DNA of 64,000 nucleotides from a virus. Taxonomy: Duplodnaviria; Caudoviricetes. The notes beneath the pieces are model-generated. The model worked only from the letters and a program-made list of their open reading frames with translations. It was not told where the DNA came from and did no database searches. Below are positions 7,785-55,111 of the stretch, piece by piece. The stretch lies in the IMG/VR virus record IMGVR_UViG_3300033233_001970, one strand, 5' to 3'. The number at the start of each line of letters is the position of its first letter. The first letter of the stretch is position 1. The position numbers were made by a program, and so were the translations under genes.

Positions 7785-8291
7785 CTACGACTGGCCGATC
7801 ATCTGCCAGAACGGAACGGTGGTTGCCGTGAGCGTTGCGCTGGCCGTTTCGAAACCGGCGCCGCCGAGCTTGGTGTCGTCGGCCGTCGCTTCGACCTTCG
7901 CTGCGCTCGGGCCCGTGTTCGGATCGTCCTTCGGCCAATCTGCCGGAAGCGGAGTGCCGTCCACGAGATTGATCGGCGGCGAACCGGCGTACATCTTGGT
8001 CTTCGTGACCGAAAACGGCGCCGCAATCGCTTGCTCCGTTCCTTGATCGAGTTTCGAAAGATCAGGAATGCTGAAGCGGTATACTTGACCCGAGAGCAGC
8101 GGTTGTCCCTTCGGAACGCGCGCCCATGTTCCCGTCGCTGCGGGCGTTGTTGCAGGCGCAGGCTTGACGGTTGCCCCCGCAGCCTTCGGTCTCGAGAACC
8201 ACCAAACGAGGCCACCTACAGCGGCAGCGGCGCCCGTGATCCAAAGAGCAGTTTTGACGGGAGGTGAAATGGGATTTTCGTCGTCGAACAT
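7785..8291 (-). CDS. single-pass membrane protein (ENPISPP family, WPxDD domain)
   Basis: MFDDENPISPPVKTALWITGAAAAVGGLVWWFSRPK. Confidence 0.75.
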   Translation of the reverse strand: MFDDENPISPPVKTALWITGAAAAVGGLVWWFSRPKAAGATVKPAPATTPAATGTWARVPKGQPLLSGQVYRFSIPDLSKLDQGTEQAIAAPFSVTKTKMYAGSPPINLVDGTPLPADWPKDDPNTGPSAAKVEATADDTKLGGAGFETASATLTATTVPFWQMIGQS

Positions 8292-8300
8292 GATGTCCTC

Positions 8301-8750
8301 TTAGAGCTTGGGTGCGGCAGGACGAAGCACGAGCACAGCTACGGCCGTTCCGGCAGGAAGCGCTGAAGCGACTGTATAAGGCGCCGTACCGATGTACTTG
8401 CCCTGAAAAGCGACCCCGCGTGCGCTCGTGTAGGGCGGAGGCAGCGGAGCGCCCTGGGCGTACTGCCCTTGATCGAAACCGAGACTGGCCATGGATAGCT
8501 TGAATTTGGCAACATCCCCGTCGGTCCAGCCTGCGGGCGCGTCGAATGCCAAGGCGAAGTAATCGCCAGGCATGACGGTACCTGAAGCGGCCTGCGTCCA
8601 CGCCATCGTGCCACCGGAACCGCCGCCGACCAGAGTGGCTTTTGCGGGCTTCGAGAAAAACCAGACGAGGCCGCCGAGAGCAGCGGCAGCACCGGTGATC
8701 CAAAGAGCGGTTTTGACGGGGGGTGAGATGGGGTTTTCGTCGTCGAACAT
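8301..8750 (-). CDS. single-pass membrane protein (ENPISPP family)
   Basis: MFDDENPISPPVKTALWITGAAAALGGLVWFFSKP. Confidence 0.75.
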   Translation of the reverse strand: MFDDENPISPPVKTALWITGAAAALGGLVWFFSKPAKATLVGGGSGGTMAWTQAASGTVMPGDYFALAFDAPAGWTDGDVAKFKLSMASLGFDQGQYAQGAPLPPPYTSARGVAFQGKYIGTAPYTVASALPAGTAVAVLVLRPAAPKL

Positions 8751-8842
8751 GGATGGGCCTCGTTACGAGAAAGCCTACATGAACTCTTGGCAACGATCTA
8801 TGTTAGTTTTTGGCAACGAAATTCGGTTACCATCTGCAAACG

Positions 8843-9733: not shown

Positions 9734-10243
9734 ATGAATACTCCGCACGGACTCGGCCAGGCGCCCCAACCTTCTGCTCCTACGCCCACATGGGTCTGGG
9801 TCTCGGTAGGCGCCGTTGTCCTTGCCGAAATTGGTGCAGCGATTTGGTTTTTCAACCAACCGAAATCAAATCCAGCTACTCCGCGCTCGAGCTATTGGGA
9901 CATCTACGAGCTCAAGATCACGCCCGTCAACAAAAACACGAGCATCACGGATGCGATGGGAATCCCAATCCGTGTTCGGCACGGCGACTGGATCATCCGT
10001 TCGCTTCTCGCGGTGCCCAACGAATACGATCCGCAAAAACCGCGCACGATCACCTCCAAGCTCGAGCGCATCGAGCACAGCAAAAACACAGCGATGTACG
10101 AAGCGGGCAAGCTCGCCACCGCGTACGCGAACTTCAACATCCGCAACCCGAATCCGGCACGGGTGACCGACGAGAAAGGCAAATGCATCTTCTCTGTTGT
10201 GGGCGACCCGAGCACCAACAGAGCGGTCGAAACCACGTGCTGA
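9734..10243 (+). CDS. TM anchor + NPYTP-family domain
   Basis: TM helix, KSNPATP..WDIYELKI...RNPNPARVTDEKGKC. Confidence 0.7.
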   Translation: MNTPHGLGQAPQPSAPTPTWVWVSVGAVVLAEIGAAIWFFNQPKSNPATPRSSYWDIYELKITPVNKNTSITDAMGIPIRVRHGDWIIRSLLAVPNEYDPQKPRTITSKLERIEHSKNTAMYEAGKLATAYANFNIRNPNPARVTDEKGKCIFSVVGDPSTNRAVETTC

Positions 10244-15423: not shown

Positions 15424-16857
15424 ATGAAAATCCACAACGTCCGCCTCGGCCTCGCCACGAACTCGAGCTCGACCCACTCGATCATCTTCACGAAGAACCG
15501 CGTGAAGGACAAAGACGTCGAGGGGCGCGAATTCGGCTGGGATCTTTGGACTGCTGCCTCGAAAGAAGCGAAGCGGCAGTACGTCGCGATCCATCTCCTT
15601 CACGCCATTCGTGGCCAGGTCTCCAAGGACGTCGCCGATGCGGTGCTCGAGCAGTGGATCCCAGGCGTCGAGCGTCCGGTGAAGGAAGACGACGAATTCG
15701 CATGGGACGAACAGGTTCGCGGCTACGTCGATCATCAGTCGGAATACGTGCTCCCGCGTGCGTGGGACGGCGCGGGTGTCGACAAGGCGTTCTTCGAGGA
15801 CTTCCGCGACTTCTTCCTTCGTGACGACGTCGTCATCCTCGGCGGCAACGACAACGACGACGAGACTCACGAGCTCGGTAAGGGTTTCGTGCTCCCCATC
15901 ACACGGGACGGCGGCGCAGGCGATATGGTCGCGCGCAAAGACGAACAGGGCGGCTATTGGACGCTCTTCGATCGCAACGACGGTACTAAGATTCGGTTCT
16001 CGTTCGACACGCCAACTTCGAGAAAAGAAGTCACAAAGGCGTCCGCGCCAGAGCTTGTCGACATCAAGATCACCGACTTCTGTCCCTACAACTGCGCGTT
16101 TTGCTACCAGGGCTCGACCGGCGGCGGCAAACACGCCGATGTCGGCATGTTCTACCGCATTGCAGAAACGCTCGGACAGCTCCGCGTCTTCGAAGTTGCC
16201 ATCGGCGGCGGCGAACCGACGCTTCACCCGAAGTTTCTCCAGATTCTCGACGCATTCAAGAGCCGTGGCATCGTCGCGAATTTCACGACGAAGAATCTCG
16301 CGTGGCTCCGCGATGCGATGGCGTGGCCGAAGATCATGGAAAAGATCGGCGCATTCGCGTTTTCGGTCGATGACGAAAAAGACGTCGAGCAGCTCGCCGC
16401 GCTTCTCGAGGTGAACGGCATCGACACAAGCCAAGCGTCCGTGCAGTACGTCATGGGCTCCACCGACGTCTACAAGATGGAGCGGATTATCGAGAAAGCG
16501 GCCGACGCCCGTCTTCGCATCACGCTCCTCGGCTACAAGACGACAGGACGTGGTTCGAGCTTCAAGCCGCAGCCGTACAAGGACTGGGTCAAGCGCGTCA
16601 AGAAGCTCTACGAACAGAAGCACTATTTCACGCTCGGCATCGACACCGCACTCGCCAAGGAAAGTGGTGGCGAGCTCGCCGACGAACGCATCCCGACCAA
16701 GCTCTACGCGACGGACGAAGGCAAGTTCTCGATGTACATCGATGCGGTCGACGGAAAAATCGCGGCGTCGTCCTACGTCGAGGACATCGCGATGAAACGC
16801 GCGGATCTCCAGAATCTCACCAAAGAGAAGCTCGTCGCGGCGTTCGCGGAGTGGTGA
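15424..16857 (+). CDS. radical SAM protein with N-terminal TNSSS domain
   Basis: CPYNCAFC (CxxxCxxC), GGGEPTLHP, NFTT; RLGLATNSSSTHS N-terminus. Confidence 0.9.
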   Translation: MKIHNVRLGLATNSSSTHSIIFTKNRVKDKDVEGREFGWDLWTAASKEAKRQYVAIHLLHAIRGQVSKDVADAVLEQWIPGVERPVKEDDEFAWDEQVRGYVDHQSEYVLPRAWDGAGVDKAFFEDFRDFFLRDDVVILGGNDNDDETHELGKGFVLPITRDGGAGDMVARKDEQGGYWTLFDRNDGTKIRFSFDTPTSRKEVTKASAPELVDIKITDFCPYNCAFCYQGSTGGGKHADVGMFYRIAETLGQLRVFEVAIGGGEPTLHPKFLQILDAFKSRGIVANFTTKNLAWLRDAMAWPKIMEKIGAFAFSVDDEKDVEQLAALLEVNGIDTSQASVQYVMGSTDVYKMERIIEKAADARLRITLLGYKTTGRGSSFKPQPYKDWVKRVKKLYEQKHYFTLGIDTALAKESGGELADERIPTKLYATDEGKFSMYIDAVDGKIAASSYVEDIAMKRADLQNLTKEKLVAAFAEW

Positions 16858-16900: not shown

Positions 16901-17473
16901 ATGGCGAAACCGCCGTGGCCGTACGATCCGAGATTACGCGAGCTACTTGTCGCCTTTCTCAAGGTGGCAAAAAAAGTACGTAAATCCTATGCCATTGGCG
17001 GCGCCTTAGCGATGAGCGCCCACGGGTACGTACGTCAGACGTCGGATTTGGACGCGTTTCTTTTGGATGAGGATCGGCTCGATTGGTTACGCGCGCTCCG
17101 TAAGGCAGGTCTCACGATTGACAGCGTTTTTCGAGGTATTCACTACATCGCTTTTTTCCCGAAACACGCGGATCCGCGCATCCGTATTGATTTGCTTTTC
17201 CCGGCTACGGAGCCCGAGTTAAGCGCAGTCGAATTCCCGGTGAGTGCAAAAATAGCTGGATTCAACGCAGAAGTATTCCCGTTGGAATTACTTGTTGTGG
17301 CCAAGTTTTTGTCCGACAGGCCGGAAGATCAACGAGACTTCGACGTCATGTTCAATCTGGGTATTTTCGAACCGACCGCAGCTCGAAGAATTATCAAATC
17401 CATCGAGCCAAAGAAAGTCGTCGCTACTTTCGATCAAAGAATCAAAGACCTGAGCAGACCTCGCTTGCCGTGA
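16901..17473 (+). CDS. nucleotidyltransferase family protein
   Basis: IGGALAM..HG..R.T.DLD motif; LVVAK...R..D..D. Confidence 0.8.
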   Translation: MAKPPWPYDPRLRELLVAFLKVAKKVRKSYAIGGALAMSAHGYVRQTSDLDAFLLDEDRLDWLRALRKAGLTIDSVFRGIHYIAFFPKHADPRIRIDLLFPATEPELSAVEFPVSAKIAGFNAEVFPLELLVVAKFLSDRPEDQRDFDVMFNLGIFEPTAARRIIKSIEPKKVVATFDQRIKDLSRPRLP

Positions 17474-17480
17474 GGGTGCG

Positions 17481-17816
17481 ATGATGACTGGCAAAGAAGC
17501 GGTTCGGATCATCAACGACTCCCTGAGCCGGTCAGGACGAACGAAATTTCGAAGAGCTACACGATCTCGTGGGTACAAATGCTGTCGCGACCATCGACGC
17601 ACTTCAGGCGCTCACGACAGCGATCGAATACGCCATGCTTCTGCGCATGTAATGGACTGCATGTGCCAGACGTGCGGACGCGAATTTCATCTCTTGGTTC
17701 GTGCGTCGGAGTACGCCTCCGAAGCCGAATCGAACGAAGCGCCTCGGCTCTGCCCGCGCTGTTGGAAAGCGCAGCCCAAACCACCTAACCGCCCTCCGTT
17801 CCACGAAAATGACTGA
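17481..17816 (+). CDS. zinc-ribbon protein
   Basis: CQTCGREF...PRLCPRC. Confidence 0.5.
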   Translation: MMTGKEAVRIINDSLSRSGRTKFRRATRSRGYKCCRDHRRTSGAHDSDRIRHASAHVMDCMCQTCGREFHLLVRASEYASEAESNEAPRLCPRCWKAQPKPPNRPPFHEND

Positions 17817-18282
17817 ACGCGATCCTGACCCGTACGTGATGTACATCGTCGTGCGTAGGAGCTTGAAGCTCTCCGCTGGCAAAGTCGGCGCGCAGTGTGG
17901 TCACGCCGTCCAGTACCTCATGCAAGAATTTTTGCCCGAGAGATGGCCCACCAGAGACGAGGCGAAGCTCCTGTCACGAAAGGTTGCCGGAACGCTTACC
18001 GACGAAGAACGCACCCGCTTCGAGGCGTTGGAAAAAGAGAAAGACGACCGATACGAACGTTGCGTTACGGCCGGCGAATGGCTTAAGGGCGATCACGCGA
18101 AAATCATCCTCGGCGCGAGCGACGACGAGTTCATGAAAGTGCAGCTCGAGAACGAGCACTTCTTCATGGTCGTCGACCTCGGGTACACCCAGGTTGCGCC
18201 TGACACTGAGACGTCGCTCGGCTTATGGCCGATGAGAAAAAGCGCAGCGTCGGAAACCGTCAAGACATTGAGACCGTTGTAA
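17809..18282 (+). CDS. pth2: peptidyl-tRNA hydrolase, PTH2 family
   Basis: MYIVVRRSLKLSAGKVGAQCGHA...KIIL...DLGYTQVAPDTETSLGLWP. Confidence 0.85.
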   Translation: MTERDPDPYVMYIVVRRSLKLSAGKVGAQCGHAVQYLMQEFLPERWPTRDEAKLLSRKVAGTLTDEERTRFEALEKEKDDRYERCVTAGEWLKGDHAKIILGASDDEFMKVQLENEHFFMVVDLGYTQVAPDTETSLGLWPMRKSAASETVKTLRPL

Positions 18283-18336
18283 AGGCAGCTCGACGCCGTA
18301 AAGCTCGAGACACTCGATCCTCGACCGGGAGACATC

Positions 18337-18543
18337 ATGAACGAACACATTCTGCAATTCTTCGTATGGGAACACCTTCCCGAACATCTCGCTGAGGTGA
18401 GCAAGCCGTTCGGCGAGCTCGCGAACCAGATCGTCGCGACGCTGCCGCGCAATCAGGAGCGCACCGTGGCGCTTCGCAAGCTGCTTGAGGCGAAGGACGC
18501 GGCGGTTCGCGCAAAGCTCGCGAAGGAAGACGTCACGAAGTAA
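18337..18543 (+). CDS. small helical-hairpin phage protein (possible Acb2/Tad1-like sponge)
   Basis: FF.WEHLPEHL..VSKPF..LA......P...ERTVALRKLLEAKDAAVRA; RBS GGAG. Confidence 0.65.
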   Translation: MNEHILQFFVWEHLPEHLAEVSKPFGELANQIVATLPRNQERTVALRKLLEAKDAAVRAKLAKEDVTK

Positions 18544-18596
18544 CGGTTTTCGTTCCGCAACGTCAACGGCTTTCGTTGATGGTAGTATCGGTGACG

Positions 18597-19697
18597 ATGC
18601 GTCGCCGTTCGAACCCTTACACGTCGCCGTGGACAGTGATCGAATACCGAATCACCCGTCGCCTGATCGACGGGATCGTGTATCTGGTTCTTCTCGAGCT
18701 CGTACAAGAGCCTGGCGAAAAACCGACGACTGCGGTGTACACGTGGCACGCTTCTAGAGCCGACCTCATAAAAACAGCAAAATTTACCATACAAAACGCA
18801 GCGAGGCGCGAGAGAAACAGTCCGATTCCGGTTCGCTTGTTCGATGAGCGCGGCCAATGCCTCTACGCCGCGCGTAACAAGATGATGCCGCCGAGCCACG
18901 ACCCGAAATGGGGCTTGATCGGACAACGTCCTACGCCGTCGTGGGAAGAAATTCCGTGCGACGCGCGGCCAAACCCGCATGCCAGCAGGAAGCAGAACCC
19001 GATCTACTTCGACGATCTGCCGCTCGCGGAACGTCAGCGACACGCACAACTGTGGCGTGCGTCAATCGCGAAGCTTCGCGATCTGCCGTATCCGTTTCAG
19101 GCGACGTTCGACGGCGAGCGTATCACCGTGCTCGGTCGCGTACGGGATTTCGAACCCTACACAAGTCATCCATGCCAACAAGCTGAAGCTACCGACGAAT
19201 CGATGATGGTTCGTGGATCGGATGGCAAGAAGTTCATCGTCTTCGGCCACAGCTTGTTCGTCGGCGACCAACGCCTCGTGTACCAGTCCGGCTACCGCCG
19301 CCGTCCTGTAGTTGATCCTTTGGGACTAGGATGGAAAGAAAACCCCGTCGGCGTCTTCATCTACGATCTCGACGCGCTCGACAAGCTCGCGGCGATGGAA
19401 GGCCAGGATTGGCTCAAAGACGATCGTCGTATGTGGGAACGGTACCGTAGCGGCAATACAGCGCACGCGTTCGTAACGGCGTGGAAGTTCACACGCCATC
19501 TCTCGCCGGAAGATTCGATCTATTGGAAAGACTATTTCGCGGGCGAGACAGGTGTGGAGCTCGGCGTCATCTACGGTAACGGCGGCTACGCGAGGTACGC
19601 CGTATCCAGCGAAGGTGAGATTCGGCTCGATCCAGGATCGACACGACCAGAGAAGGTAGCTCGAGCTCTCGGGCTAGGGTTTCGGGTGCCGCGATGA
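18597..19697 (+). CDS. NP-delimited multimodule protein (NPYTP domain first)
   Basis: RRRSNPYT, RPNP, KQNP, KENP joints. Confidence 0.75.
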   Translation: MRRRSNPYTSPWTVIEYRITRRLIDGIVYLVLLELVQEPGEKPTTAVYTWHASRADLIKTAKFTIQNAARRERNSPIPVRLFDERGQCLYAARNKMMPPSHDPKWGLIGQRPTPSWEEIPCDARPNPHASRKQNPIYFDDLPLAERQRHAQLWRASIAKLRDLPYPFQATFDGERITVLGRVRDFEPYTSHPCQQAEATDESMMVRGSDGKKFIVFGHSLFVGDQRLVYQSGYRRRPVVDPLGLGWKENPVGVFIYDLDALDKLAAMEGQDWLKDDRRMWERYRSGNTAHAFVTAWKFTRHLSPEDSIYWKDYFAGETGVELGVIYGNGGYARYAVSSEGEIRLDPGSTRPEKVARALGLGFRVPR

Positions 19698-20905
19698 AAC
19701 GCAGTCAAGAATGTGCACGTATCCTCGCGAAGAACGCGGGCGCCGTCGAGTGCCGTCGCAACCGCATGAGCGGCACCATCATTACGCTCTACGACGGAAT
19801 CGCGGCCGGCATCGAGTCGGATCCGGAGCTACGCTGGTGTACCGTCTGCGAAGATCACTCGACACTCACCTGCCACTCGTCGCTTTCGCTCGCGCGCCGT
19901 CACATGGCAGTGCCGGAATGGTGCGAGGAGTGTCAGGCGATCATGGAGTCGAGGAAATCGAATCCGTACACACCCTCATCAACCGATGAACAATACTTTG
20001 ATTACAAAGTCATCCACTACCCTGTGTATTCGAGCGCCGGTCTGCGCAAACAAGGCTGGCGAGTAGAGGCGGCTCAGTTTACACCCGGTCAGCAGCCACA
20101 TTTCTACTGGCCTGACGATCAAGGATTCGAGTTCGAGAAGCATTTAGATGCGATCGATCATGCCAAGTGGCGTGCCCAAGGTGCCGCTATTGCCGGTGAT
20201 CATGCGCGCGTACTCGACGAAGCTGGGCGTTGTGTGGTTGCGTACAAACATCAACCACCTGACAACGCTATCGAAGTGTCTTGCGGCGCCGTTCGATCGA
20301 ACCCCTGCACGCCAGGCTGGCCCGTCTACGAATTTCGTGTTCGTCAACGCGGTTCCGATCGCTGGTGCATTCAACTCATGACGCAGCTTCCTGGGCAAGC
20401 TCCACGGTTCGAAGAGTTCGGGTGTGGTTCCCTCGGTTTCATGTCGACGAGGGACTGGGCCATTGCCGGCGCAGAACAAGAAGCGTGGGAGCATTCGCGA
20501 AGAGAAGCTTCCAACCCGAACGCGGTGCTCGTTCGCGATGAGCGTGGACGGTGCGTACACGCGTTCGTGGGTGGTGAGCGCGTGGAGTGTCCTTCGTACC
20601 GAGCCAATCCGTACACGCCAAGCTGGCCGCGTTACGAGCTCAAGGTCGAAGCAGCCGAGAGCTACATCGACCGTCACCAGAGTCGCCGCATCGTATACAA
20701 ATGGAAAATCACGATGCTCACGTGGACGCCCGAGGGAAAACCGAAATTTCAAGAAATAGGTTTTTCTGGCGATCTCGGTAAAGCCGAGAGAATCGCCTTT
20801 GACTACGCGAACAAACTTCACAGCAAAGAACCGCGCAACCCGAACGACATTCGCGTTTTCAACAATGCAGGCAAGTGCATTTTCTCGATTCAAGGAGCTT
20901 GCTGA
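19694..20905 (+). CDS. Zn-binding N-domain + three tandem NPYTP-family domains
   Basis: KSNPYTP, RSNPCTP, RANPYTP; each unit ends R(V/I)xDExGRC-like. Confidence 0.8.
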   Translation: MKRSQECARILAKNAGAVECRRNRMSGTIITLYDGIAAGIESDPELRWCTVCEDHSTLTCHSSLSLARRHMAVPEWCEECQAIMESRKSNPYTPSSTDEQYFDYKVIHYPVYSSAGLRKQGWRVEAAQFTPGQQPHFYWPDDQGFEFEKHLDAIDHAKWRAQGAAIAGDHARVLDEAGRCVVAYKHQPPDNAIEVSCGAVRSNPCTPGWPVYEFRVRQRGSDRWCIQLMTQLPGQAPRFEEFGCGSLGFMSTRDWAIAGAEQEAWEHSRREASNPNAVLVRDERGRCVHAFVGGERVECPSYRANPYTPSWPRYELKVEAAESYIDRHQSRRIVYKWKITMLTWTPEGKPKFQEIGFSGDLGKAERIAFDYANKLHSKEPRNPNDIRVFNNAGKCIFSIQGAC

Positions 20906-21375
20906 TGCCGCACGCGCTCACAGGTCGCAAATTCATCGTGACGTACCGCGTGCGATGCCTCGATGTGCACGGACACGGTCCCGATGAGTGCGGCTCCGAA
21001 TACGGATGCCCTTGCGTCGGTATCGATCCGGCAACAGGAGAAGAAATCCACGATCCCGAGCAGTTCAACGACGGCGAATGCGATGCGGAGTACACGGTCA
21101 ATAATTCGTACGACTGCGGCAGCATCGAGGTCGAAGCCGACGAAGAGGAGTACACGGGTGCGCGCGGAATGCAGATTTTCGCACAGCAAAATCCAGAATA
21201 CGATGACATCGTTCGAGCGCTCGTGGATGGCGGATTTCTCAAACCCAACGTGAAACCCAATGACGTCACCATCGACGGCGAGAGCGACGGATTGCTCATG
21301 ATCGACGACGCGACCGACGGTGAACCGCTTTTTCAGCTCAATTGGGAGAGTTCCGTACTCGATACGGGAGATTGA
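20905..21375 (+). CDS. acidic hypothetical protein
   Basis: TGATG coupling; Cys cluster; DATDGEPLFQL. Confidence 0.6.
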   Translation: MPHALTGRKFIVTYRVRCLDVHGHGPDECGSEYGCPCVGIDPATGEEIHDPEQFNDGECDAEYTVNNSYDCGSIEVEADEEEYTGARGMQIFAQQNPEYDDIVRALVDGGFLKPNVKPNDVTIDGESDGLLMIDDATDGEPLFQLNWESSVLDTGD

Positions 21376-21378
21376 GCC

Positions 21379-22248
21379 GTGGCGTCAAAATTCAAATACG
21401 AACCATTTGTCCGTGTCGGCGCCATGTCGTCGGACGATGCACGCGATTTCGTGGTTCGTGAATTCGGAGTGGATCCTGCGCGGATCTATCTCATCAAGGA
21501 CGGTGGCCCCGCCAATCCGGAACGCTACAAGCCTGGCGCAAGGGTATGGCACGTCTACATCGGCAAGAAACCCGTGGGCGGGCACCTGTACCGCGTGAAA
21601 GAGAACCCGCGTTACGAAAAAGGCTTCCCGATCGGCCATCATCAAATCATCGTGGACAAACTCGGCGTCGTCTACGACGGCCGCGACGAGATCGAAGCGG
21701 GCGCCAAGTACGGCGAGTACATTGCGCTCTCGATGTCAGGCGACGGCTACCGCGTCATCTGGCTCGTTGATGGTGAGGTCGAGGATCAGTACATTCCGGA
21801 GCTCGAGGAAGAGATCAAGCTCGCGTGGTGGGACGAACACATCAAGAAAAATCCGTACACGCCGCCGTCCTTGAAGTGGCCCGTCTACGAGTACAAGATT
21901 TCACCCGCATGGGGCTACCGAGTCAAATCAGGAGATCCGGACGAGTGGCAAATCTGGGAGCTCGAAAAGCGCCCTGGAGAGCGCGCAAAAATACGAATCG
22001 TCGGCGGCGAGCAGCCGCGCTCCATCCATGGGAACCGAGAACCCTTGTGGAAGGTGAAACACAGAGCGATTGATCGAGCCATCGATTTGGCCATTCGTCA
22101 CGCGACGAACATGGATCCGCGAAATCCAAATCCCATCCGTATTCTCGACGAGAGCGGCCGATGTTACTCCGTCGTTCGGCCGGCGTACCGTGGCGCCGCG
22201 ACCATCGATGAGTGCGATCCTCCGGCACGACCAAACCCTTCGAAGTGA
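21379..22248 (+). CDS. NP-delimited multimodule protein with one NPYTP domain
   Basis: KENP, KKNPYTPP..WPVYEYKI...RNPNPIRILDESGRC, RPNP. Confidence 0.75.
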   Translation: MASKFKYEPFVRVGAMSSDDARDFVVREFGVDPARIYLIKDGGPANPERYKPGARVWHVYIGKKPVGGHLYRVKENPRYEKGFPIGHHQIIVDKLGVVYDGRDEIEAGAKYGEYIALSMSGDGYRVIWLVDGEVEDQYIPELEEEIKLAWWDEHIKKNPYTPPSLKWPVYEYKISPAWGYRVKSGDPDEWQIWELEKRPGERAKIRIVGGEQPRSIHGNREPLWKVKHRAIDRAIDLAIRHATNMDPRNPNPIRILDESGRCYSVVRPAYRGAATIDECDPPARPNPSK

Positions 22249-22257
22249 TTCTGTGTC

Positions 22258-23387
22258 ATGAGACCGAATCCCTACACGCCGCCGTCGCAGCTCTGGCCAC
22301 GCTACGAGTTTCGACTGCGGCGGAGGTCGGAGCAAAACCGTGGCTCGTGGACGTCTGGCGCCTCGAGCGACGCTACGGCGAGCAACCCAAGATGAAGCAG
22401 GTGAGTGTAGCGAATCGCGTGTACACGGTTGCCGTCGACGACGCCAATGATTGGGCGAAAATCCAATCGATGGCCGAGCCGAACAATCCGAATCCGGTGC
22501 TCGTCATCGATATCCACGGAAGCTGCTACAGCGCGTTCATCAACGGCAAACGCACGCATTGCCCAGACGAGATGGTGCGGCGCAACCCATACACATCCTC
22601 TTGGCCGATCTACGAGGTACGCATTCGCTACCACAAGCAACGAAATGCGTGGATTCCAGTCACCTACAAAAAGATGCCTGGTGAGAATCCGAAGATCGAA
22701 GAAGATTTCATGGGGTATCACCAGCGCGGTCAGGCGCTCGAGGCGATCAAAAATTACGCGCACCTGCTCTCGAGACGCCCGTGGGATCAATCGTGGGGAT
22801 CGCCAAATGATCTGCGAAATCCAAATCCCGTTCGCGTCCTCGACGAGCATGGTCGCTGCGTCACGGCGTATCTTGCGGGCAAGGAGATCGGCTGCCCGAA
22901 CCCTGTTCCGCCCGAGCAAAGTAGTGGCATAAAATTGGGGCACATTCTTGCTGGTGGCGCCATTGCTGCGTTGGTATGGACGTTTCGGCAGAGCATCTTC
23001 GGATCGGACAATCCGTTGGCTCAGGTTGCCGGCCGCATTATCAGCCGCGACGCGCGCGCCGCTACGACCTACACGCGACTCGCTACACCCGAAATCGGCG
23101 GCGGCCTACACGGCGCCGGACGCTATCTCATCAGCGTAACGCCTTCAGGGTTCGAAACGCTGCGGTCGTACGCCGCAACCGTCCTCAGGAGCGACACGGG
23201 CGCTACCGTGATGGGTCCGTTCCAGGGATGGCGAGACGAAAACGACATGAACCACTTGTCCGAGTTTCAATCGGTGGGTGACGGAGACGACGCCAGTCGC
23301 GCACGCATGACTGTCGTGCTCGGCATGCCGTACGGCTACGGCACGTTGCCGGACTCGATTGATCCGAAGGTTTGGCAGGTAAAGTAG
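22258..23387 (+). pseudogene. two NPYTP domains + TM + C-domain, split by a -1 frameshift near 22334
   Basis: MRPNPYTPPSQLWPRYEFRLRRRSE (frame of 22258, stop 22393-22395) continues as KPWLVDVW...NNPNPVLVIDIHGSC in the -1 frame. Confidence 0.7.
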
Positions 23388-23389
23388 TG

Positions 23390-24325
23390 ATGTGGTGCGC
23401 GCCCAACCCGACCGGATATTGCTTCTACAAGAGCTGCGTGCAGTTTCACGGTCCTGAAGTCGAAGCCCTGAACGAGATGATTCGTGACGCAAAAGAGATC
23501 TCGCGCCGCACGATGCTCAAATACGTCGATCTCCGACCCATCGCGCGAGAGCTCGGTTACGACGCGCATCCGTCGCAAGGACTCACGATGGCCAAGGACT
23601 GGGCCATCTCGTACTACAAATCGACTTTCCGGGGCTGGCCGGCATTTTTCTTCGCCTGGTCTCACATCGAGCACATCTTCGTGCCCTGCGAAGCGCTCGA
23701 ACAGTTTTCGCGGCAAGCGTACGTACCGAACCCTGCTCCCGTCTCGAGCCTTCCCGGAGACGTCGTCCAAGTCTTCGTCGAGCTCGGGAATGCCCAACGC
23801 GGCGCTCCTGAGGCGGCTATGGAGCGCGCGCAGCTCGCCATGGGCGGCGGCGTCATGAACGTCCTCATCGAGCACGTCGGCGACCTCACGCACCGCATGT
23901 CCCACATGGCTCGGCACGACTACGACGGGTACGGCGAGGTTCACGAGAAGCTCAATACGACGCTTTACTACCTTCGCAGCGACTACGGCTTCGAACGCGA
24001 GATGTGGGAAAATTTCCAGAACAACGCACGCGCTCGAGGCGTGCCCTACGATGGCTACTGGAAACGCATTCGAGAAGCCTTAGCGGTCTATACCGAAGCT
24101 CACAGAAAGCTTCCTGCGTACAACGAGGCCCAGTGGCTCGCGCGCGAAGCCGCTATCGAGACAGGCGAGCTGCATTTCGATCTTGTCGAAAAGTACCTCA
24201 AGAAACTTCAGCGCATGCAGAAGACGCGCGAGATGTGGCACAAGGCAGCGTTCGCGTATGCGCGCGACACGGACGGAAGGCTTCTCGTGTCGAGGTGGCC
24301 GGAGGGTACGGTCCTTACGGATTAG
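23390..24325 (+). CDS. two-module NP-delimited phage protein
   Basis: APNP then D.AISYYKS.FRG.P..FF.WSHIEHIF phage domain; VPNP then helical domain. Confidence 0.7.
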   Translation: MWCAPNPTGYCFYKSCVQFHGPEVEALNEMIRDAKEISRRTMLKYVDLRPIARELGYDAHPSQGLTMAKDWAISYYKSTFRGWPAFFFAWSHIEHIFVPCEALEQFSRQAYVPNPAPVSSLPGDVVQVFVELGNAQRGAPEAAMERAQLAMGGGVMNVLIEHVGDLTHRMSHMARHDYDGYGEVHEKLNTTLYYLRSDYGFEREMWENFQNNARARGVPYDGYWKRIREALAVYTEAHRKLPAYNEAQWLAREAAIETGELHFDLVEKYLKKLQRMQKTREMWHKAAFAYARDTDGRLLVSRWPEGTVLTD

Positions 24326-24677
24326 GATTTTTCTTCGAAGATTTTTTGGCCTTCGGCGGCGGATCAACCGGCGCTTCGACCGGCAATTCAGCGGCGACTG
24401 CTTCGGGCTTCGGTTCTAGCATCGCTGCGCCCTTCGGCTCCGTTGTATCCTGCCCCTTCGGCAAAAACTGCTTTGCGTACTCATCCGGCACTTCCCGCGT
24501 CGTCCAGTGAAGCGGAACATCGAACGAGCGCGGGCCGAGCTGCCGCGATTTCTTCGCGGGGTAGAACTGCGTTCTTTCCTCACGAAGCGTGTCGCGCGCC
24601 AGCGCCTCGTCGGCCGCTGCCTGCGTGGGGAAGATGGTGTGGGTCGGCGATCCGTTGCAAACGAGCTCGATGAACAT
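24315..24677 (-). CDS. small protein downstream of fibre gene
   Basis: GAGGA RBS; CNG...FPTQAAA motif shared with 26106 and 28767. Confidence 0.6.
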   Translation of the reverse strand: MFIELVCNGSPTHTIFPTQAAADEALARDTLREERTQFYPAKKSRQLGPRSFDVPLHWTTREVPDEYAKQFLPKGQDTTEPKGAAMLEPKPEAVAAELPVEAPVDPPPKAKKSSKKNPNP

Positions 24678-24686
24678 GATGTCCTC

Positions 24687-26087
24687 TCAGGCCAGATCGC
24701 GAAGGATCGCGCCGTTTTCGCAGCCCACGGCGTACCCAGAGCCGGTGGGCCCAAAGATCAAATCGCCTAGCGCGAAGCCGCCAAGCGCGACGGGCGTATC
24801 GAGGTTCGCGGCCGTGATCGCTCGTTGAGATGGCGCTGCCGCCTTGTTTCCCGTGGCTACATCGATCGCAAAAGCCATGTCGCCCGCGTTGATCGGCCCG
24901 TTGGCTTCGATGTGTAGCGACGCGAGCAAAAACGTCTGCACGGCCGTGCGGTTGTACTGCCAGAAGAGCTTCGTCTCCGGGTACACGAAGATACGGTCGC
25001 CCCACAGAACCGGAGGTCCGTAGTCGCCGTTCTGCACGCGGTAGTTGCCGCCTTGGCCTAGCGCACGGAATCCAACAACGAAGAAATTTTCGAGACAGGC
25101 CAAGCTGAACGCGGTGTCACTTTGCAGATTGTTCGCGCCTTGAAGAAGTACATCCCCATCGAGGAAGAATGTGCCGCCTACGAAAGACAGTATAGCCCCG
25201 CCTTCGTAGAATGGGATCGTTGTACCTATGCCGGAGCCGAAACCGCCACCGGGAGCGAAACAATTGGCCGCCGATCCCGCAGCGCCTTCCGCAGCACGCG
25301 GAAGATAAAAGTTGGCGAATGAACAGAACGCCGTCCAACAGATGCCGATGAATTGTTCGGCGAATGCTGGATCCCCGTGAAACGCCGCGTCCACGAAGAC
25401 GAGCGCGCCTCCGAGCCCATTGACGGCCTGCGCAAACGCCATGTTCAGGCGACCCGGACGAAGCACGCGGTAGGTGTTGGTCGCGACGGGATCAACTTGG
25501 GTGTTCGCAAAGATCGCGAACGGGTTGATCGGAGTCGGGTTGACGTTCTGGACGAGCGAGCAAATGACAGCGGTCGTTCCGCCCGCGCTCGCGCGAATGA
25601 AGGACTGTGCCGACAGCGTCGTGTCCTCGAAGATAAGCCCGACGTTCGTGTTGATATTGGGGCCGCTCACTGTCTGACGTCCCGCAACACCGGCTGCGCG
25701 ATTTTTCGGCGTCGCCGCCGTCAACATCCCGGACGCGACCACCGCCATCGGCATCGTCCACACGAGTGAGAAGAGCGCCACATCGATCACAATCTCGTCT
25801 GTCGTTCCCTGCCCAGGAAGCTCTTCACTCAGGAACGTGACGGACATGGGAACCTGAATCGAGCCGTTCTTGGCGCCGATGCGCCGCAGGAGCTCAGCTT
25901 TCGTCAAGAGCGGCATGAGCGCGGTCGCGCCCGTGTTGCTGTCATTGGCAAGGCCGGAGACGTTCTGCGGATCAACGAACCACACAGGTTGCGAAAGAAA
26001 AAACGATGTTCCTCCTGAGCCGACGCTTGACGGAATCGGGTAGGTGGTCGCGGCAAAACCGACACGCTGGCTTCCTCGAAGAGTCAT
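24687..26087 (-). CDS. fibre/spike-like virion protein (FAAxxYP leader)
   Basis: WFVDPQNVSGLANDSNTG...PLLT motif typical of beta-helix spike N-termini. Confidence 0.65.
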   Translation of the reverse strand: MTLRGSQRVGFAATTYPIPSSVGSGGTSFFLSQPVWFVDPQNVSGLANDSNTGATALMPLLTKAELLRRIGAKNGSIQVPMSVTFLSEELPGQGTTDEIVIDVALFSLVWTMPMAVVASGMLTAATPKNRAAGVAGRQTVSGPNINTNVGLIFEDTTLSAQSFIRASAGGTTAVICSLVQNVNPTPINPFAIFANTQVDPVATNTYRVLRPGRLNMAFAQAVNGLGGALVFVDAAFHGDPAFAEQFIGICWTAFCSFANFYLPRAAEGAAGSAANCFAPGGGFGSGIGTTIPFYEGGAILSFVGGTFFLDGDVLLQGANNLQSDTAFSLACLENFFVVGFRALGQGGNYRVQNGDYGPPVLWGDRIFVYPETKLFWQYNRTAVQTFLLASLHIEANGPINAGDMAFAIDVATGNKAAAPSQRAITAANLDTPVALGGFALGDLIFGPTGSGYAVGCENGAILRDLA

Positions 26088-26105
26088 CGCGGCTCACTTT
26101 CTCGG

Positions 26106-26408
26106 CTAGGACTCGATCGTATACCAGGCGCGTACGACGTCTTCTTCGTTTGCTCCGCGAAGAAAAGCCGTAGGAACGGATACGGGACACTGCTTCACCT
26201 GCTCATCAACAAACAGTTGTGCATCAGTGCTGTTGTCGAACGTGTCGACGAGATTTCCGTTGCACTTCACTTTCACCGAACGTGGCTTGATGGCTTGATA
26301 GTCGTTCTTGGCATGACCTTGCGCGACGCGAACAGCGATGAGCTTGGCTGCCGCAGCGGCATCGTCAGCGAACGCGTTGTGATGCCATTGGTAGAGAATT
26401 TCGATCAC
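26106..26408 (-). CDS. small protein between fibre genes
   Basis: GAGGAG RBS; CNGNLVDTFDNSTDAQ. Confidence 0.6.
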   Translation of the reverse strand: MIEILYQWHHNAFADDAAAAAKLIAVRVAQGHAKNDYQAIKPRSVKVKCNGNLVDTFDNSTDAQLFVDEQVKQCPVSVPTAFLRGANEEDVVRAWYTIES

Positions 26409-26418
26409 AAGAATCTCC

Positions 26419-28767
26419 TCACGTCACGAAAAACTGGAGCACGTTACCCGTGGAGCCCGCAGCACCGCTTGCTGCTCCTCCGGTGCCGCCGGCACCGCCG
26501 CTGACATCAAGCCCAACGCCGTCAATCGCGATCTGCGGTCCGATGAGAACGATTGTGCCGCCTCCGCCGCCACCGCCACCGCCTGCACCTGCGCCACCAA
26601 TACCGCCAGCACCACCCTTAGCTTGAAAGATGCCGCCGAAAGCGGAGAGGATGCGTGCGGCGATCCACACAACACCTGCGCCGCCACCGCCACCGCCGCC
26701 TGCGGCGATGGGGCCACCTCCGCCGCCACCTCCACCTGCGCCGCCTTGCAACGGTACGAGGGCGAGGGCCGGAGGTGCACCCGTGATCTGAGGAACTGCC
26801 CAATGCGCAATCTCAGGGAGACCTCGCACGTCACCACCGCCTGTGACCGCAGTGTATGTTCCGCCGGCACCGGCCGCGCCTGCGCCAGCTCCGCCTGCGC
26901 CTCCAGTTGGAGCGGATACGGCGTGCGGAATGCCCTGCGTGACGTTCGTGCCGGCCGCGCCTGCTCCGCCGCCTGCCACTCCGCCCGCGCCTCCATTGGT
27001 TCCGCCCGCAAGCGAACCAGCCGGTGCGCCTGCGCCTGCGACGCTCGCAACAGCATTTGCGCCGTTGCAGAAGATGACGGACGCGGGCGTGATCTTCAAC
27101 AAGAACTGGCCTGTGCAGCGTATACGGAACCCGTTGGTGTTCATCGTGGGACCGTTGCCGAAATCACAGTTCGTGTAGAAAACATCGCGCGTGAGTGTGT
27201 AATTGCCCGCTAGCAACGTCGAGCCTGCCGGCACGGCAATACCGTCGAACTGGGCAAAGCCATCGGAACCGTCACCAAACAATCCAGATCCACCGATGAC
27301 CTGATCGATCTGACGGAATCCAGAGTTCGGCGTTGTGATGGGACCAAGATACGCGCCCGTCGCAGTATCGAAAATCGCGTTATTCGTGCTGAGCTGAGCA
27401 ACGGTATAACCACCGCTAAAAATCGATGCCGAAAAACCAAGAAATGCGTTGTTTACGTTGTTGCCGACAACAAGCGGCGTCGTCGTCGCGAAGCCGAGCG
27501 ACAACGTTGCTGGAGGTAGATAGTCGAAGTGTCCTCCGGGCTGAATGCTTATTGCGCGCCCAATCGTCGGTGCTGTAGTGCTCAAGAGACCGTATTGAAC
27601 GGTTGCTCCATAGAAGATGCTTTTCTGTGTAACAGTTGCATCGGCGTCCACGAAGATGGCGTTTCCTTGAAGTGGAAACTCGCAAAACAAGCCGACGGTA
27701 CCAAGCGTCGCGCGACCTTTGACGATGAGTGCGCCCGCGTCATTGTTGAAGTTGCCAAAGCTGATGTAGAAGTCACCGTCGAGCGAACCGTTCTCGTTGA
27801 TGATCAGTCCACCGACGGAACCTCCGCCTAGAAAAGAGGGTTCAAACCTAGACGATCCCTGCGAACTGATTTCTGGTGCGCGCGTGAACCAACAATTGAG
27901 CGTGAGAGCGGCGACTCCACGAAATTGCATGTTCGTTCCGATTCGACATTCGGAGAACGCAATGAATCCAGTAGCATCGCTGTCGATAATCGACGTGCCG
28001 AAGCTGCCGGTGAGAAAGTCCCATCCGTAGAAGACGACCTCGCCAAACTGATTAGGCACTCCCTGCGTGTACGTGTCGGCTCCGAATACGGCGGTCGGCA
28101 ACGTGAGAATTTGGTAACTGTCGCCCGCTTGTGGCGCAGCTCCGATAACCGGAACCGCGAAAAATGAGGGCGCCGCGAGCGCGTTGAAGTTTTGTGTGAG
28201 TCTGGCGTTCGAAACGCCAGCTACCGGATCGGTCGCCGGAATCCACTCGATGGTGCCGCGCGTGATGTTCTTCATCATACTGTTGATGAAGGGCGTGTAG
28301 TTCGCGATGCCTGTACCCGTGATCGTCCACGGCTGCGCAGTTCCCTGACCGCGATTCAGTACATGCGTGATCGCCAAGATCGTGTCGGCAGCCGCAACCG
28401 TAGATGCCGGAGCCTTTATGATGAGTCCGCCCTGAACAAAAACATTGGCGAGAATACCAATCGGATCAGTGGTCGGCGGCGCGCTCGTAAACGTTACGGT
28501 GCAGACACCACCTGTCGGAATCATAGTAGGCTTGTTGCCGGCGACACCGCTCCAAATGGCGTAAAGCCTCGCCGCTGTCTTGACGGGGTTGCCGGGAAGG
28601 CCCGTTCCGGTGACATCATTGCCGTTGATCGGATCAACGACGAACGCAGGCGCGATGACAGGCGCTACCGATCCGCCTGATGATCCGCCAGACAGGGCAG
28701 CGTTCGCGCGAGCAATCGCGAGGTCGATCTCTGGACGACGAATACTTTCATCTCTATGACGAACCAT
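26419..28767 (-). CDS. large fibre/spike-like protein with glycine-rich C-terminal domain
   Basis: HRDESIRRPEIDLAIARAN leader; VDPINGND..G...P.KT; FGDGSDG then Gly-rich GGGGGG repeats. Confidence 0.75.
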   Translation of the reverse strand: MVRHRDESIRRPEIDLAIARANAALSGGSSGGSVAPVIAPAFVVDPINGNDVTGTGLPGNPVKTAARLYAIWSGVAGNKPTMIPTGGVCTVTFTSAPPTTDPIGILANVFVQGGLIIKAPASTVAAADTILAITHVLNRGQGTAQPWTITGTGIANYTPFINSMMKNITRGTIEWIPATDPVAGVSNARLTQNFNALAAPSFFAVPVIGAAPQAGDSYQILTLPTAVFGADTYTQGVPNQFGEVVFYGWDFLTGSFGTSIIDSDATGFIAFSECRIGTNMQFRGVAALTLNCWFTRAPEISSQGSSRFEPSFLGGGSVGGLIINENGSLDGDFYISFGNFNNDAGALIVKGRATLGTVGLFCEFPLQGNAIFVDADATVTQKSIFYGATVQYGLLSTTAPTIGRAISIQPGGHFDYLPPATLSLGFATTTPLVVGNNVNNAFLGFSASIFSGGYTVAQLSTNNAIFDTATGAYLGPITTPNSGFRQIDQVIGGSGLFGDGSDGFAQFDGIAVPAGSTLLAGNYTLTRDVFYTNCDFGNGPTMNTNGFRIRCTGQFLLKITPASVIFCNGANAVASVAGAGAPAGSLAGGTNGGAGGVAGGGAGAAGTNVTQGIPHAVSAPTGGAGGAGAGAAGAGGTYTAVTGGGDVRGLPEIAHWAVPQITGAPPALALVPLQGGAGGGGGGGGPIAAGGGGGGGAGVVWIAARILSAFGGIFQAKGGAGGIGGAGAGGGGGGGGGTIVLIGPQIAIDGVGLDVSGGAGGTGGAASGAAGSTGNVLQFFVT

Positions 28768-28952
28768 TAGCGAATCTCGTATCCTGCCCGCAGCGTCGCC
28801 TCAATTTGCGGATTGCGCGTGAAACGCACCGCCATCTGGACGGTCTTGTCGAGTACGCCATCGAGATATTTCTGCGCCTCCGCCTTCGTCGAGAAGTCGT
28901 TCGGTTTGCCGTCGGGGAGCTCGCAGAGCTGGTTATTACGGTAGATTTTCAT
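28767..28952 (-). CDS. small protein between fibre genes
   Basis: TAATG coupling; NDFSTKAEAQKYLD. Confidence 0.55.
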   Translation of the reverse strand: MKIYRNNQLCELPDGKPNDFSTKAEAQKYLDGVLDKTVQMAVRFTRNPQIEATLRAGYEIR

Positions 28953-28961
28953 GATTGATCC

Positions 28962-30638
28962 TTAGTTCGCGATCATCCAGTCCACATCGGCGCCGTTCGC
29001 GGCGTCTACGCCCGCGCCATTTAGCGCGGTGATCTTGAAACTGCCTGGGGTACCGATCACGCGATCGACGAAGAGTGCTGCGTAGCGTGTTGTCGCGGCA
29101 GCTCCGACGTCTGTTCGCTCGAAGCCAACGATCTTGCTGCTTGCCGTGATAATCGCAGAAATCGCAGGGGAAACACCTGCGACAAGCGTGGTAGTTCCTG
29201 CTTGAAGCGCAGGCGAGCCGCCACCGGGCCCATTCATACGATCCGTGGTTCCGTTGAGAAAAAGATTTGTATTAACCACAAGTCCGCCAGGGATTCCGGC
29301 TTGTGGCAGGTTCACGTTCGCGCCATCTGTTTGATTCACGCCGACGAAGCCGCCGCCGCTCTGCGCGAGCGAATTGATTCCGATGACAGACGCATCGTAG
29401 GCGTTGATGACGGTGAACGCGCCGAGCGTGGTGGACGCGAATTGCGCGCCACCGCCACCGCTCGGGAAAATCTGCGAGGCGCGTAGCATGTCGATGACGG
29501 CGATCCCTGCTCCGCTCGACCGAATGAACGGAGCCGTGGCGCCAGCGCCGACGTTGCTCAAGCTCACGTTGTCGAAGATAAATGTGCGAATATCGATTAC
29601 GTCGATCAGCGGAGTCGCGCCCGCACCAAACCAGTTGATACCGATGTCCGCGAACCCGATCGAAGCCGTGCCGGCGAACGTTACTCCGTTCGCGATCGAG
29701 AGCGTCGTGGTGATCCATCGATCGCCCTGAAAACGAACCGGATCCGCTCCGAGATTGTAGGCGCCTGGCGCGATCACGGGCGCGGCGCCTCGGAACTCGA
29801 AGGTGCGTGGTCCCTGAAACTGCGCCGCGAAGCCGACAGCCTGCGCGAACGTGTTGAATACATTTCCTCTCGGATCGAACACGGTCGAATCGATGACGAT
29901 CGTGTTGACCGGCTTGCTCTCGGGGAAATAGTTGCCACCGGGTACGAGGCCGCCGACGATGCCTGGTTGCGTGAGGCTGATTGACGTGGACGGCGACGCG
30001 CTGTTGACGAAGAAGGTCACTCCGCTGAGAGCACCTGCGCCAATGAAGCTGTCACCGTACGCAAGCAACTGGATGAAGCCGAGCGCGTTATCGAACACGA
30101 CGCCGCTCCCAAAACCGCCGGCTTGCGCAAGCTCGAACATGACGATTCCGATGAAGAACCCTGACGAGTTACGAATAAACGGCTGGCCCCCAAAAGTTGC
30201 TACGTTGCATGTCTCGAACGTGTAAAGGCTAAGCGGTTTGGCCGCGATACACGCTGTCGCAGTGCCGAGGTAGACGATTTGAAGATCGAGCCCTCGCCAG
30301 AACCCGATCAACGTCGCGCCATCCGCGATCGTAGCTACAGTCCCGGCGTTCACTCCGAAAAACGTCACGTCTTCAATGGGACCGAAATTCCAGACACCTG
30401 CCGGGATCACGCACGCCATAAACGTGTCATCGAATTCAACGATACGAGGCCCCTGAACGGCCGCAGCCGCCGCGACAAGCGCTGCCCAACTCGTGTAGAC
30501 GTTTTTGAATGCTGCCCCGCCTGGACGAAATACAAACGTCGTCTGCTCGGCTGCTGCTGAAGATGCTGCGGAATTCGCTCGAGCTATCGCGAGATCAATT
30601 TCCGGTCGGCGAATACTTTCGTCTCTGTGTCGGCGCAT
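28962..30638 (-). CDS. fibre/spike-like virion protein (HRDES leader, internal duplication)
   Basis: NVYTSW...QGPRIVEF repeated as NVFNTF...QGPRTFEF; C-terminus resembles that of 51146..51991. Confidence 0.7.
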   Translation of the reverse strand: MRRHRDESIRRPEIDLAIARANSAASSAAAEQTTFVFRPGGAAFKNVYTSWAALVAAAAAVQGPRIVEFDDTFMACVIPAGVWNFGPIEDVTFFGVNAGTVATIADGATLIGFWRGLDLQIVYLGTATACIAAKPLSLYTFETCNVATFGGQPFIRNSSGFFIGIVMFELAQAGGFGSGVVFDNALGFIQLLAYGDSFIGAGALSGVTFFVNSASPSTSISLTQPGIVGGLVPGGNYFPESKPVNTIVIDSTVFDPRGNVFNTFAQAVGFAAQFQGPRTFEFRGAAPVIAPGAYNLGADPVRFQGDRWITTTLSIANGVTFAGTASIGFADIGINWFGAGATPLIDVIDIRTFIFDNVSLSNVGAGATAPFIRSSGAGIAVIDMLRASQIFPSGGGGAQFASTTLGAFTVINAYDASVIGINSLAQSGGGFVGVNQTDGANVNLPQAGIPGGLVVNTNLFLNGTTDRMNGPGGGSPALQAGTTTLVAGVSPAISAIITASSKIVGFERTDVGAAATTRYAALFVDRVIGTPGSFKITALNGAGVDAANGADVDWMIAN

Positions 30639-30644
30639 GCACCA

Positions 30645-30662
30645 GATGTATCACTTGCCGTT
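30645..30662 (-). promoter_or_regulatory. putative promoter AACGGCAAG-TGA-TACATC, 6 nt before ATG
   Basis: near-identical to 2673..2690. Confidence 0.55.
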
Positions 30663-30796
30663 TGAAAACGAAAGAAGTTACCAATCGTCAAGGGCCCGTT
30701 CCGTCATCCGTCCCGAGCGTCGTAGGCGATGCGCAAGATCTGTGGCCCTTTTCGCCGCGCGCCTTTTTCGTTCGTATTCATTTTTTGTGTCTTTCA

Positions 30797-53886: not shown

Positions 53887-53927
53887 TCGAACAGCATCAC
53901 CGGCTCGAGCGTCGAATCCTGACTCAT
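53787..53927 (-). pseudogene. truncated paralogue of 54427..55089
   Basis: MSQDSTLEPVMLFDQNGNALAVANG...AMGSE vs MSQNSTLEPVMLFDQNGNALSVQNG...AMGSD; stop after 46 aa. Confidence 0.7.
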
Positions 53928-55089: not shown

Positions 55090-55111
55090 CCGAGCATCGA
55101 CTCCTGACTCA

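Follow-up and report, generated by a model that had tools for sequence, protein, structure and literature searches.

An Asn-Pro-bounded alpha/beta domain family of large uncultivated phages as a candidate cytoplasmic docking module

PDZ domains dock C-terminal peptides by strand addition, and mosaic module exchange is familiar among phage proteins, for example endolysins and tail fibers. The Asn-Pro dipeptide is known from another context, the NPTH loop of the export-switch proteins FlhB, YscU and SpaS, in which self-cleavage takes place at Asn-Pro (PMC4620466). Here, we describe a family of domains opening with NPYTP which shows likeness to each of these systems and is encoded in a 64,000-nucleotide stretch of viral DNA (record IMGVR_UViG_3300033233_001970), hereafter the window, from a phage contig of 246,055 bp. 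We propose that this undescribed domain of about 100 residues, with a predicted alpha/beta fold, serves as an interchangeable, often membrane-tethered cytoplasmic docking module with paralog-specific partners, a tentative reading to which we give slightly less than an even chance.

A profile of the family run against the six-frame translation of the window identified exactly nine copies and no further one. The domain E-values of the eight intact copies span 2e-20 to 3e-34, and the next six-frame match has an E-value of 0.087. An earlier note on this DNA, made from the letters and a list of ORFs (open reading frames) with translations, had placed nine copies in genes 9734, 18597, 19694 (three), 21379, 22258 (two) and 41109, and the profile confirmed all of them:

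Copy 1, 9863-10240, plus strand, in gene 9734.
Copy 2, 18606-18917, plus strand, in gene 18597.
Copy 3, 19955-20296, plus strand, in gene 19694.
Copy 4, 20294-20602, plus strand, in gene 19694.
Copy 5, type c, 20600-20902, plus strand, in gene 19694.
Copy 6, 21844-22245, plus strand, in gene 21379.
Copy 7, in two frames, 22258-22577, plus strand, in gene 22258.
Copy 8, 22578-22907, plus strand, in gene 22258.
Copy 9, 41136-41459, plus strand, in gene 41109.

In an alignment of the nine segments, copies 1-8 share 31-51% identity with copy 9, and neither G90 nor C92 varies. All nine copies open with [K/R]-x-N-P, in agreement with the statement of the same note that each starts at an NP site. The conserved motifs are NP[YW]TP-WPxYE, PGExP and RNPNPxRVxDExGxC, followed by a second Cys, and only P4, A65, P80, G90, C92 and C104 are conserved in at least 90% of 46 domain sequences. 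The conserved ends described in the note are thus evident, while its "hypervariable" middle was overstated: beyond the ends, PGExP and three helix alanines of the middle are kept as well, and the middle is well conserved within an orthologous group, type-c orthologs preserving it as well as the ends. Between paralogs, its length differs at the tip joining strands 1 and 2 and in the loop between strand 3 and the helix. The middle is paralog-specific rather than hypervariable.

The note had not recognized the family, and neither did the resources that we queried. No threshold match to the domain in the six genes was obtained from Pfam, PHROGs or PADLOC, the Pfam matches to CHAP and DUF192 falling only in the non-family part of gene 41109, and a Pfam scan of all 46 domain sequences gave none at or above the family threshold. 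In a profile search of PDB sequences the best E-value was only 0.84, tblastn against 50,697 GenBank phage records returned no family copy, and no relatives emerged from a viral contig collection when the queries were the family alignment, the type-c alignment and the 41106 protein. Full-text searches of the literature, directed at the motifs and at phage families of a similar kind, turned up nothing relevant. Besides ArlS_N, the only Pfam family matched more than once was DUF6894 (PF21834), a small bacterial domain of unknown function, with sub-threshold matches in four of the 46 domains (best E-value 0.013, scoring 16.1 bits where the cut-off is 24.1). The likeness extends over the helix and the "V.V.DE.G" hairpin half, that is, about half of the domain, whereas DUF6894 is devoid of the NPYTP, PGExP and RNPNP motifs and of the Cys pair.

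Among 1.84 billion representative proteins, the profile search produced 45 matches at an E-value of 0.001 or below, of which four are artefacts from repeat proteins, pieced together from many weak segments, and five belong to the window itself, leaving about 36 relatives and no match to a well-described family. All traced relatives are located on metagenomic contigs with phage-like content (RNA ligase, HNH, NUDIX, release factor, an Acb2/Tad1 hairpin gene and many small ORFs). Judging from these searches, the family appears to be new to every resource queried and confined to a clade of large uncultivated phages; the earlier description "lineage-specific" holds for such a clade and fails for this genome alone.

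AlphaFold, supplied with the 46-row alignment, returned a confident alpha/beta model of the domain with a predicted local distance difference test score (pLDDT) of 90 and a predicted template modeling score (pTM) of 0.81. The modeled elements are, in order, strands 14-24, 27-37 and 44-51, helix 58-75, and strands 83-86 and 92-97. A short return after the last strand would bring C104 beside C92, as deduced from the hairpin register and not from coordinates. As modeled, the domain is without a clear fold match: Foldseek against PDB and BFVD gave none at an E-value of 0.001, and the best row of a wide structural search was AcrIF5 (7eqg chain J), with a Z-score of 5.6, a root-mean-square deviation of 3.2 and 69 residues aligned, where 7-8 is the usual best Z-score for unrelated models. 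AcrIF5 is likewise a small phage alpha/beta protein; however, with a Z-score below chance level, 12% identity and no motifs in common, it provides no evidence of kinship or function.

The docking role is suggested by the type-c paralog. In seven of seven distinct sequenced loci (the window and relatives L003, L005, L006, L008, L010 and L011), the gene ending with a type-c domain is directly followed by a gene encoding an acidic protein, with a spacing ranging from overlap to 15 bases despite differing N-terminal fusions. These loci comprise all database homologs of the acidic protein, together with the L003 and L005 copies, each lying directly downstream of a type-c-ending gene. These proteins contain 152-156 amino acids (128 in L005), with a net charge of -22 to -28, an isoelectric point (pI) of 4.1-4.3 and, in most members, six Cys. 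In the window, this gene is the following:

Acidic protein gene, 20905-21375, plus strand, 156 amino acids, six Cys, net charge -27, pI 4.1, predicted to pair with copy 5; its start codon and the stop codon of gene 19694 have one base in common (TGATG).

A model of the complex between the type-c domain and the acidic protein obtained a score of 0.71, a mark reached by 58 of 80 solved complexes and by 2 of 110 mismatched pairs, while the best of three controls obtained 0.00; contact agreement between the runs was at least 96% and the pLDDT of the partner at least 84. In this model, residues 34, 51-58, 61, 62, 65, 69 and 72 of the domain face residues 147-154 of the partner, whose last strand (147-154 of 156 residues) runs alongside strand 3 (51-58) and the helix face formed by residues 61, 62, 65, 69 and 72. 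Conservation of the interface within type c is similar to that of the rest of the domain (0.74 vs 0.76), whereas among the other paralogs the interface is more variable (0.25 vs 0.41). This pattern is the one expected for a paralog-specific docking surface. Binding of the acidic protein by the type-c domain is supported by the model, and the suggestion of the earlier note that the family binds host or defense proteins is retained in part: a binder is what the model favors, but the predicted partner is a phage protein. Modeled alone, the partner has a pLDDT of 82; it matched no Pfam family, no PDB entry by Foldseek at an E-value of 0.001 and, in the wide structural search, nothing above a Z-score of 5.8 (2i1s_B), which is below the usual chance level.

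A mechanism can be proposed on this basis. The domain would consist of three strands, a helix and a C-terminal hairpin, with the conserved motifs building the scaffold, and the edge of strand 3 together with the adjoining helix face would form a groove which takes up a partner strand in a PDZ-like manner. The type-c copy at 20600-20902 is predicted to bind the C-terminal strand of the acidic Cys-bearing protein (20905-21375), and other paralogs would bind other partners. This arrangement is reminiscent of PDZ domains in that the C-terminal strand of a partner is predicted to lie along the edge strand and adjoining helix of a small alpha/beta domain, and in that the domain is reused across many multi-domain proteins. 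The domain departs from PDZ domains in its strand order and motifs and lacks a GLGF-type loop, and no PDZ chain figured in the Foldseek or wide structural search lists for the domain.

The location of the module was assessed from its membrane helices. In 18 of 41 family proteins, a single membrane helix is found before or after the domain, and Lys plus Arg within 15 residues of this helix are richer on the domain side in 14 of these proteins, on the other side in two and tied in two. This bias suggests that the domain faces the cytoplasm, and the zinc-ribbon and zinc-finger fusions also suit the cytoplasm. If the CHAP and DUF192 parts of gene 41109 act on the wall, the N-terminal family copy would be inside the cell. 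The domain would thus be cytoplasmic beside a single membrane helix in nearly half of the family proteins, as exemplified by copy 9 in front of the membrane-anchored CHAP-DUF192 wall hydrolase, and the family would probably gather phage proteins at or near the inner membrane.

Several points weigh against the docking module. The case is computational throughout, and the complex was modeled for one paralog, type c, with shallow, self-supplied alignments (8 and 7 rows) and with a calibration which is only rough. The topology count combines related, non-independent sequences with a crude charge rule, the signal-peptide-like members P0021 and P0026 show no charge bias, and the near-invariant C92/C104 pair would be suited to disulfide formation, an unexpected feature for a cytoplasmic domain. 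The NPYTP, PGExP and RNPNP loops, which are the most conserved, are given only a scaffold role here and could be the real functional site. Finally, neither the domain nor its partner has a recognizable fold, so that neither points to a process.

The nine copies are ancient paralogs with no sign of diversifying evolution. In a maximum-likelihood tree, the window's copies never group together (nine changes for nine rows): copy 5 falls inside the type-c clade (support 98/98), and copies 8, 7 and 6 are found with P0035 (99/95), P0015 (98/86) and P0010 (94/88), respectively. Altogether, four window copies each pair with a copy on another contig, with strong branch support for three, so that the paralogs are older than the divergence of these phages. 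In the closest type-c ortholog pairs (dS 0.4-0.6, synonymous sites being saturated between distant orthologs), the ratio of nonsynonymous to synonymous substitution rates (dN/dS) amounts to 0.10-0.13 overall, with higher values in the middle (0.15-0.18) than in the flanks (0-0.10). Within the window, no DNA repeat links any copies at a blastn E-value of 1e-4, the longest local DNA repeat among copies being 50 nucleotides at 60-78% identity, and no template/variable repeat pair of the diversity-generating retroelement type was seen. The "diversifying scaffold" of the earlier note finds no support in these data, its variable core having no excess of amino-acid-changing substitutions.

The same data bear on the possibility that each copy is a fast-evolving binder of host or defense proteins, expanded through an arms race. 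Such a counter-defense role would fit the accessory region, whose equivalents in relatives hold Acb2/Tad1 hairpin, NUDIX, RNA ligase and release-factor genes, as well as the anti-CRISPR protein AcrIF5 as best structural row and the DNA-mimic charge of the acidic partner (net -22 to -28). However, dN/dS remains at 0.10-0.18 even with the middle included, the copies are old paralogs with orthologs elsewhere, near-identical DNA repeats and template/variable pairs were not found, the Z-score of AcrIF5 (5.6) is under the usual chance best of 7-8, and the predicted partner is phage-encoded. We therefore regard counter-defense binders as unlikely.

Exchange of the module between proteins is documented by its relatives. 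The type-c domain is always the C-terminal module, and the part preceding it varies:

P0013, nothing before the type-c domain (MLSNPYTP...).
P0025, a winged-helix-like region, judged by eye.
P0018, an unrelated region of 118 amino acids.
P0020, module A, which starts RRAIYYQG.
P0016, modules A and B.
P0047, modules A, C and B.
Window gene 19694, a zinc-ribbon-like segment and two other family copies.

Shared modules are 70-92% identical in close relatives and have their edges exactly at K/E/Q-N-P. For instance, P0011 and P0020 have module A in common at 92% identity, and the block that they share stops exactly at K-N-P. At the DNA level, L006 differs from L008 by the absence of 1) one whole family cassette at a gene start and 2) the stretch from K-N-P of one gene to E-N-P of the next, the latter junction lying inside a shared AGAACCC which encodes those residues. 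Similarly, gene 21379 and P0022 have two modules in common, between which a DUF3846 domain is inserted from K-N-P to M-N-P, and the fusion partner in P0022 is a phage zinc-finger DNA-binding domain; most fusion partners gave no match in Pfam. Asn-Pro therefore delimits other modules too, beyond the family domain. Recombination as an "NP-bounded cassette", another proposal of the earlier note, is substantiated by these x-Asn-Pro junctions in close relatives, one of which was mapped on DNA, and the modules have been repeatedly fused, split and swapped there. The nine starts use AAT or AAC with CCA, CCT, CCG or CCC without preference; this free codon choice speaks against the Asn-Pro codons as a DNA recombination signal, and since codon choice is unconstrained at these sites, the constraint acts on the protein. 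Phage endolysins and tail fibers likewise swap domains between related phages at domain boundaries, whereas here a single two-residue delimiter, Asn-Pro, is found at each junction and the main module is undescribed, with up to nine copies per 64 kb.

These junctions could instead be cleavage sites, x-Asn-Pro being cut by Asn-cyclization (NPTH-like self-cleavage) or by a phage protease so that free modules result from a polyprotein. Every junction seen in relatives is at x-N-P whichever module comes next, Asn is kept even at the extreme N-terminus (MRRNP, MLSNP, MRPNP), no dipeptide of the window is more over-represented than NP (84 observed vs 41.6 expected, from a crude ORF set), and Asn-Pro autocleavage is an established mechanism (PMC4620466). 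On the other hand, the NP excess is modest once the six family genes are removed (52 vs 35.6 expected, z 3.0), the residues after NP are not those of NPTH, N3 and P4 lie within the folded model, although at lower confidence, cleavage would cut domains off their membrane anchors, and Asn-Pro turns are common domain caps. The resemblance to FlhB/YscU/SpaS lies in an Asn-Pro at the boundary of two parts of a membrane-associated cytoplasmic protein; the family differs by x-N-P followed by varied residues (NP[YW]TP in the family) and has no fold or sequence similarity to these proteins, FlhB-family chains being absent from the Foldseek and wide structural search lists. We consider cleavage of this kind improbable. 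It can also be combined with docking, the clade building many of its accessory proteins as polyproteins with x-Asn-Pro as a universal (self-)cleavage delimiter and the NPYTP family being the most abundant released module, whose cytoplasmic docking units would each capture a different partner; to this broader version we likewise give only a small chance.

Nucleic-acid binding was considered in view of the basic character of the domain (pI 9.3-9.8 in six of the nine window copies), the acidic neighbor being then a regulating mimic of DNA or RNA. Fusions to a zinc-ribbon-like segment (gene 19694), a zinc finger (P0022) and a winged-helix-like N-terminus (P0025) are compatible with this function, as are weak Foldseek rows to RNase H-like proteins such as the C-terminal half of UvrC and EndoV (E-values 0.013-0.03, TM-scores 0.36-0.37). 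However, these fold matches appear to be at chance level, RNase H domains have Z-scores of 4.2-4.7 in the wide structural search, and the conserved catalytic carboxylates of RNase H-like nucleases (UvrC C-terminal half, EndoV, PIWI) have no counterpart, no Asp or Glu being conserved in at least 90% of the 46 sequences. No near-invariant basic residue is present either and nearly half of the members are membrane-tethered, making this role distinctly unlikely. Lastly, the family could be a set of paralogous proteins of the head or of the injected material, in which case the CHAP fusion would act at entry. This reading would suit a large genome (246,055 bp; phiKZ-type phages have paralogous inner-body proteins), a paralogous family with a wall hydrolase member, the large fiber-like genes adjoining the cluster (24687-30638) and a Cys pair able to form a disulfide outside the cytoplasm, but with no similarity to any PHROG structural family and with genes that are surrounded by small accessory genes and run opposite to the large genes nearby, this explanation is very unlikely.

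With the docking module as working model, a hard-to-read set of huge-phage genes can be described by a defined domain, for which a confident model and a profile are available, together with a specific candidate partner pair (type-c domain and acidic protein) and a clear Asn-Pro rule for the joining and exchange of modules. If the docking role is true, this domain would be a new kind of adaptor and could help to chart the protein networks of these phages; if cleavage does occur at the Asn-Pro junctions, it would reveal a polyprotein strategy, of a kind which to our knowledge has not been described for tailed phages. What is new is the family and its fold, a modular docking domain being an ordinary kind of function.

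The genes carrying the family in the window are organized as follows:

Gene 9734, 9734-10243, plus strand, a short N-terminus, one membrane helix (9791-9853) and copy 1.
Gene 18597, 18597-19697, plus strand, starting MRRRSNPYTS, copy 2 and then about 270 amino acids without family match.
Gene 19694, 19694-20905, plus strand, a four-Cys zinc-ribbon-like N-terminus (19835-19933) and then copies 3, 4 and 5; its start overlaps the stop of gene 18597 (ATGA).
Gene 21379, 21379-22248, plus strand, an N-terminal module of 155 amino acids in common with relative P0022 and then copy 6.
Gene 22258, start, 22258-22337, plus strand, MRPNPYTPP..., the first third of copy 7, frame lost at the AAAA run 22334-22337.
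Gene 22258, continuation in the -1 frame, 22335-23387, plus strand, the rest of copy 7 (22335-22577), copy 8, a membrane helix (22929-22985) and a C-terminal region of 134 amino acids.
Gene 41109, 41109-42671, plus strand, copy 9, a membrane helix (41502-41555), CHAP (about 41823-41993) and DUF192 (about 42261-42566).

From 18597 to 24325, genes overlap or are separated by gaps of at most nine bases, which suggests a single transcription unit. A promoter and terminator scan of 17400-24800 gave nothing above shuffles, so that this operon structure rests only on tight gene spacing. The gene following the cluster (23390-24325) starts MWCAPNPTGY, with Asn-Pro again within its first seven residues. 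The few library matches of the window are of phage type: gene 41109 matched endolysin PHROGs, and several PHROGs of unknown function were matched as well. Gene 41109 itself has an unusual architecture for a wall hydrolase (family domain, membrane helix, CHAP and DUF192), and its GenBank phage relatives, in Synechococcus phages and gut phage contigs, concern the DUF192 part only.

Two frames are needed to read copy 7, and with it the whole of gene 22258: profile positions 2-33 lie in the frame of the ATG at 22258 and positions 33-107 in that of ORF 22212. The break (-1) is located at GAGCAAAACCG, in the A run 22334-22337, and with one more A the two frames would join into a single protein carrying both domains, the membrane helix and the C-terminal region; an intact ortholog is found elsewhere (P0015). 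Programmed frameshifting is disfavored, GAG-CAA-AAC being a non-canonical slippery site. Because the site is not a canonical slippery sequence, a one-base indel, real or introduced by assembly, is the more likely origin of the break: copy 7 could reflect an assembly error or a fresh pseudogene, recoding being less likely. In L002, a 76-amino-acid ORF (2112-2342) that overlaps the start of the two-copy gene (P0007) covers no more than the initial half of a family domain (profile positions 2-49) and is a second truncated copy after copy 7.

Other genes were noted around the family. Just upstream of the cluster, 17701-18282 encodes a PTH2-type peptidyl-tRNA hydrolase (Pfam E-value 3e-16). Further upstream, 15424-16857 encodes a radical SAM protein whose core matches the prokaryotic viperin (pVip) models of PADLOC (E-value 7e-11), preceded by an N-terminal region of 200 amino acids without match; a viperin-like enzyme is unusual in a phage. 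In relatives, a 72-amino-acid gene with an Acb2/Tad1 hairpin domain, which is a sponge for defense signaling nucleotides, is present in the accessory region of the family genes (L008 16250-16468 and L009 8952-9170). A release-factor gene (PCRF/RF-1) is found near the family cluster in L006 (2717-3343), L008 (2369-2506) and the P0016 contig, and these genes may point to altered stop-codon use in the clade; the window reads well in translation table 11. Finally, the window contains other DNA repeats of 74-91% identity, unrelated to the family: 2461-2701 with 30430-30673, 55490-55789, 53852-53931 with 55014-55093, and 8192-8292 with 8651-8751, which include a tandem array near 55.5 kb and the common gene starts of large minus-strand genes.

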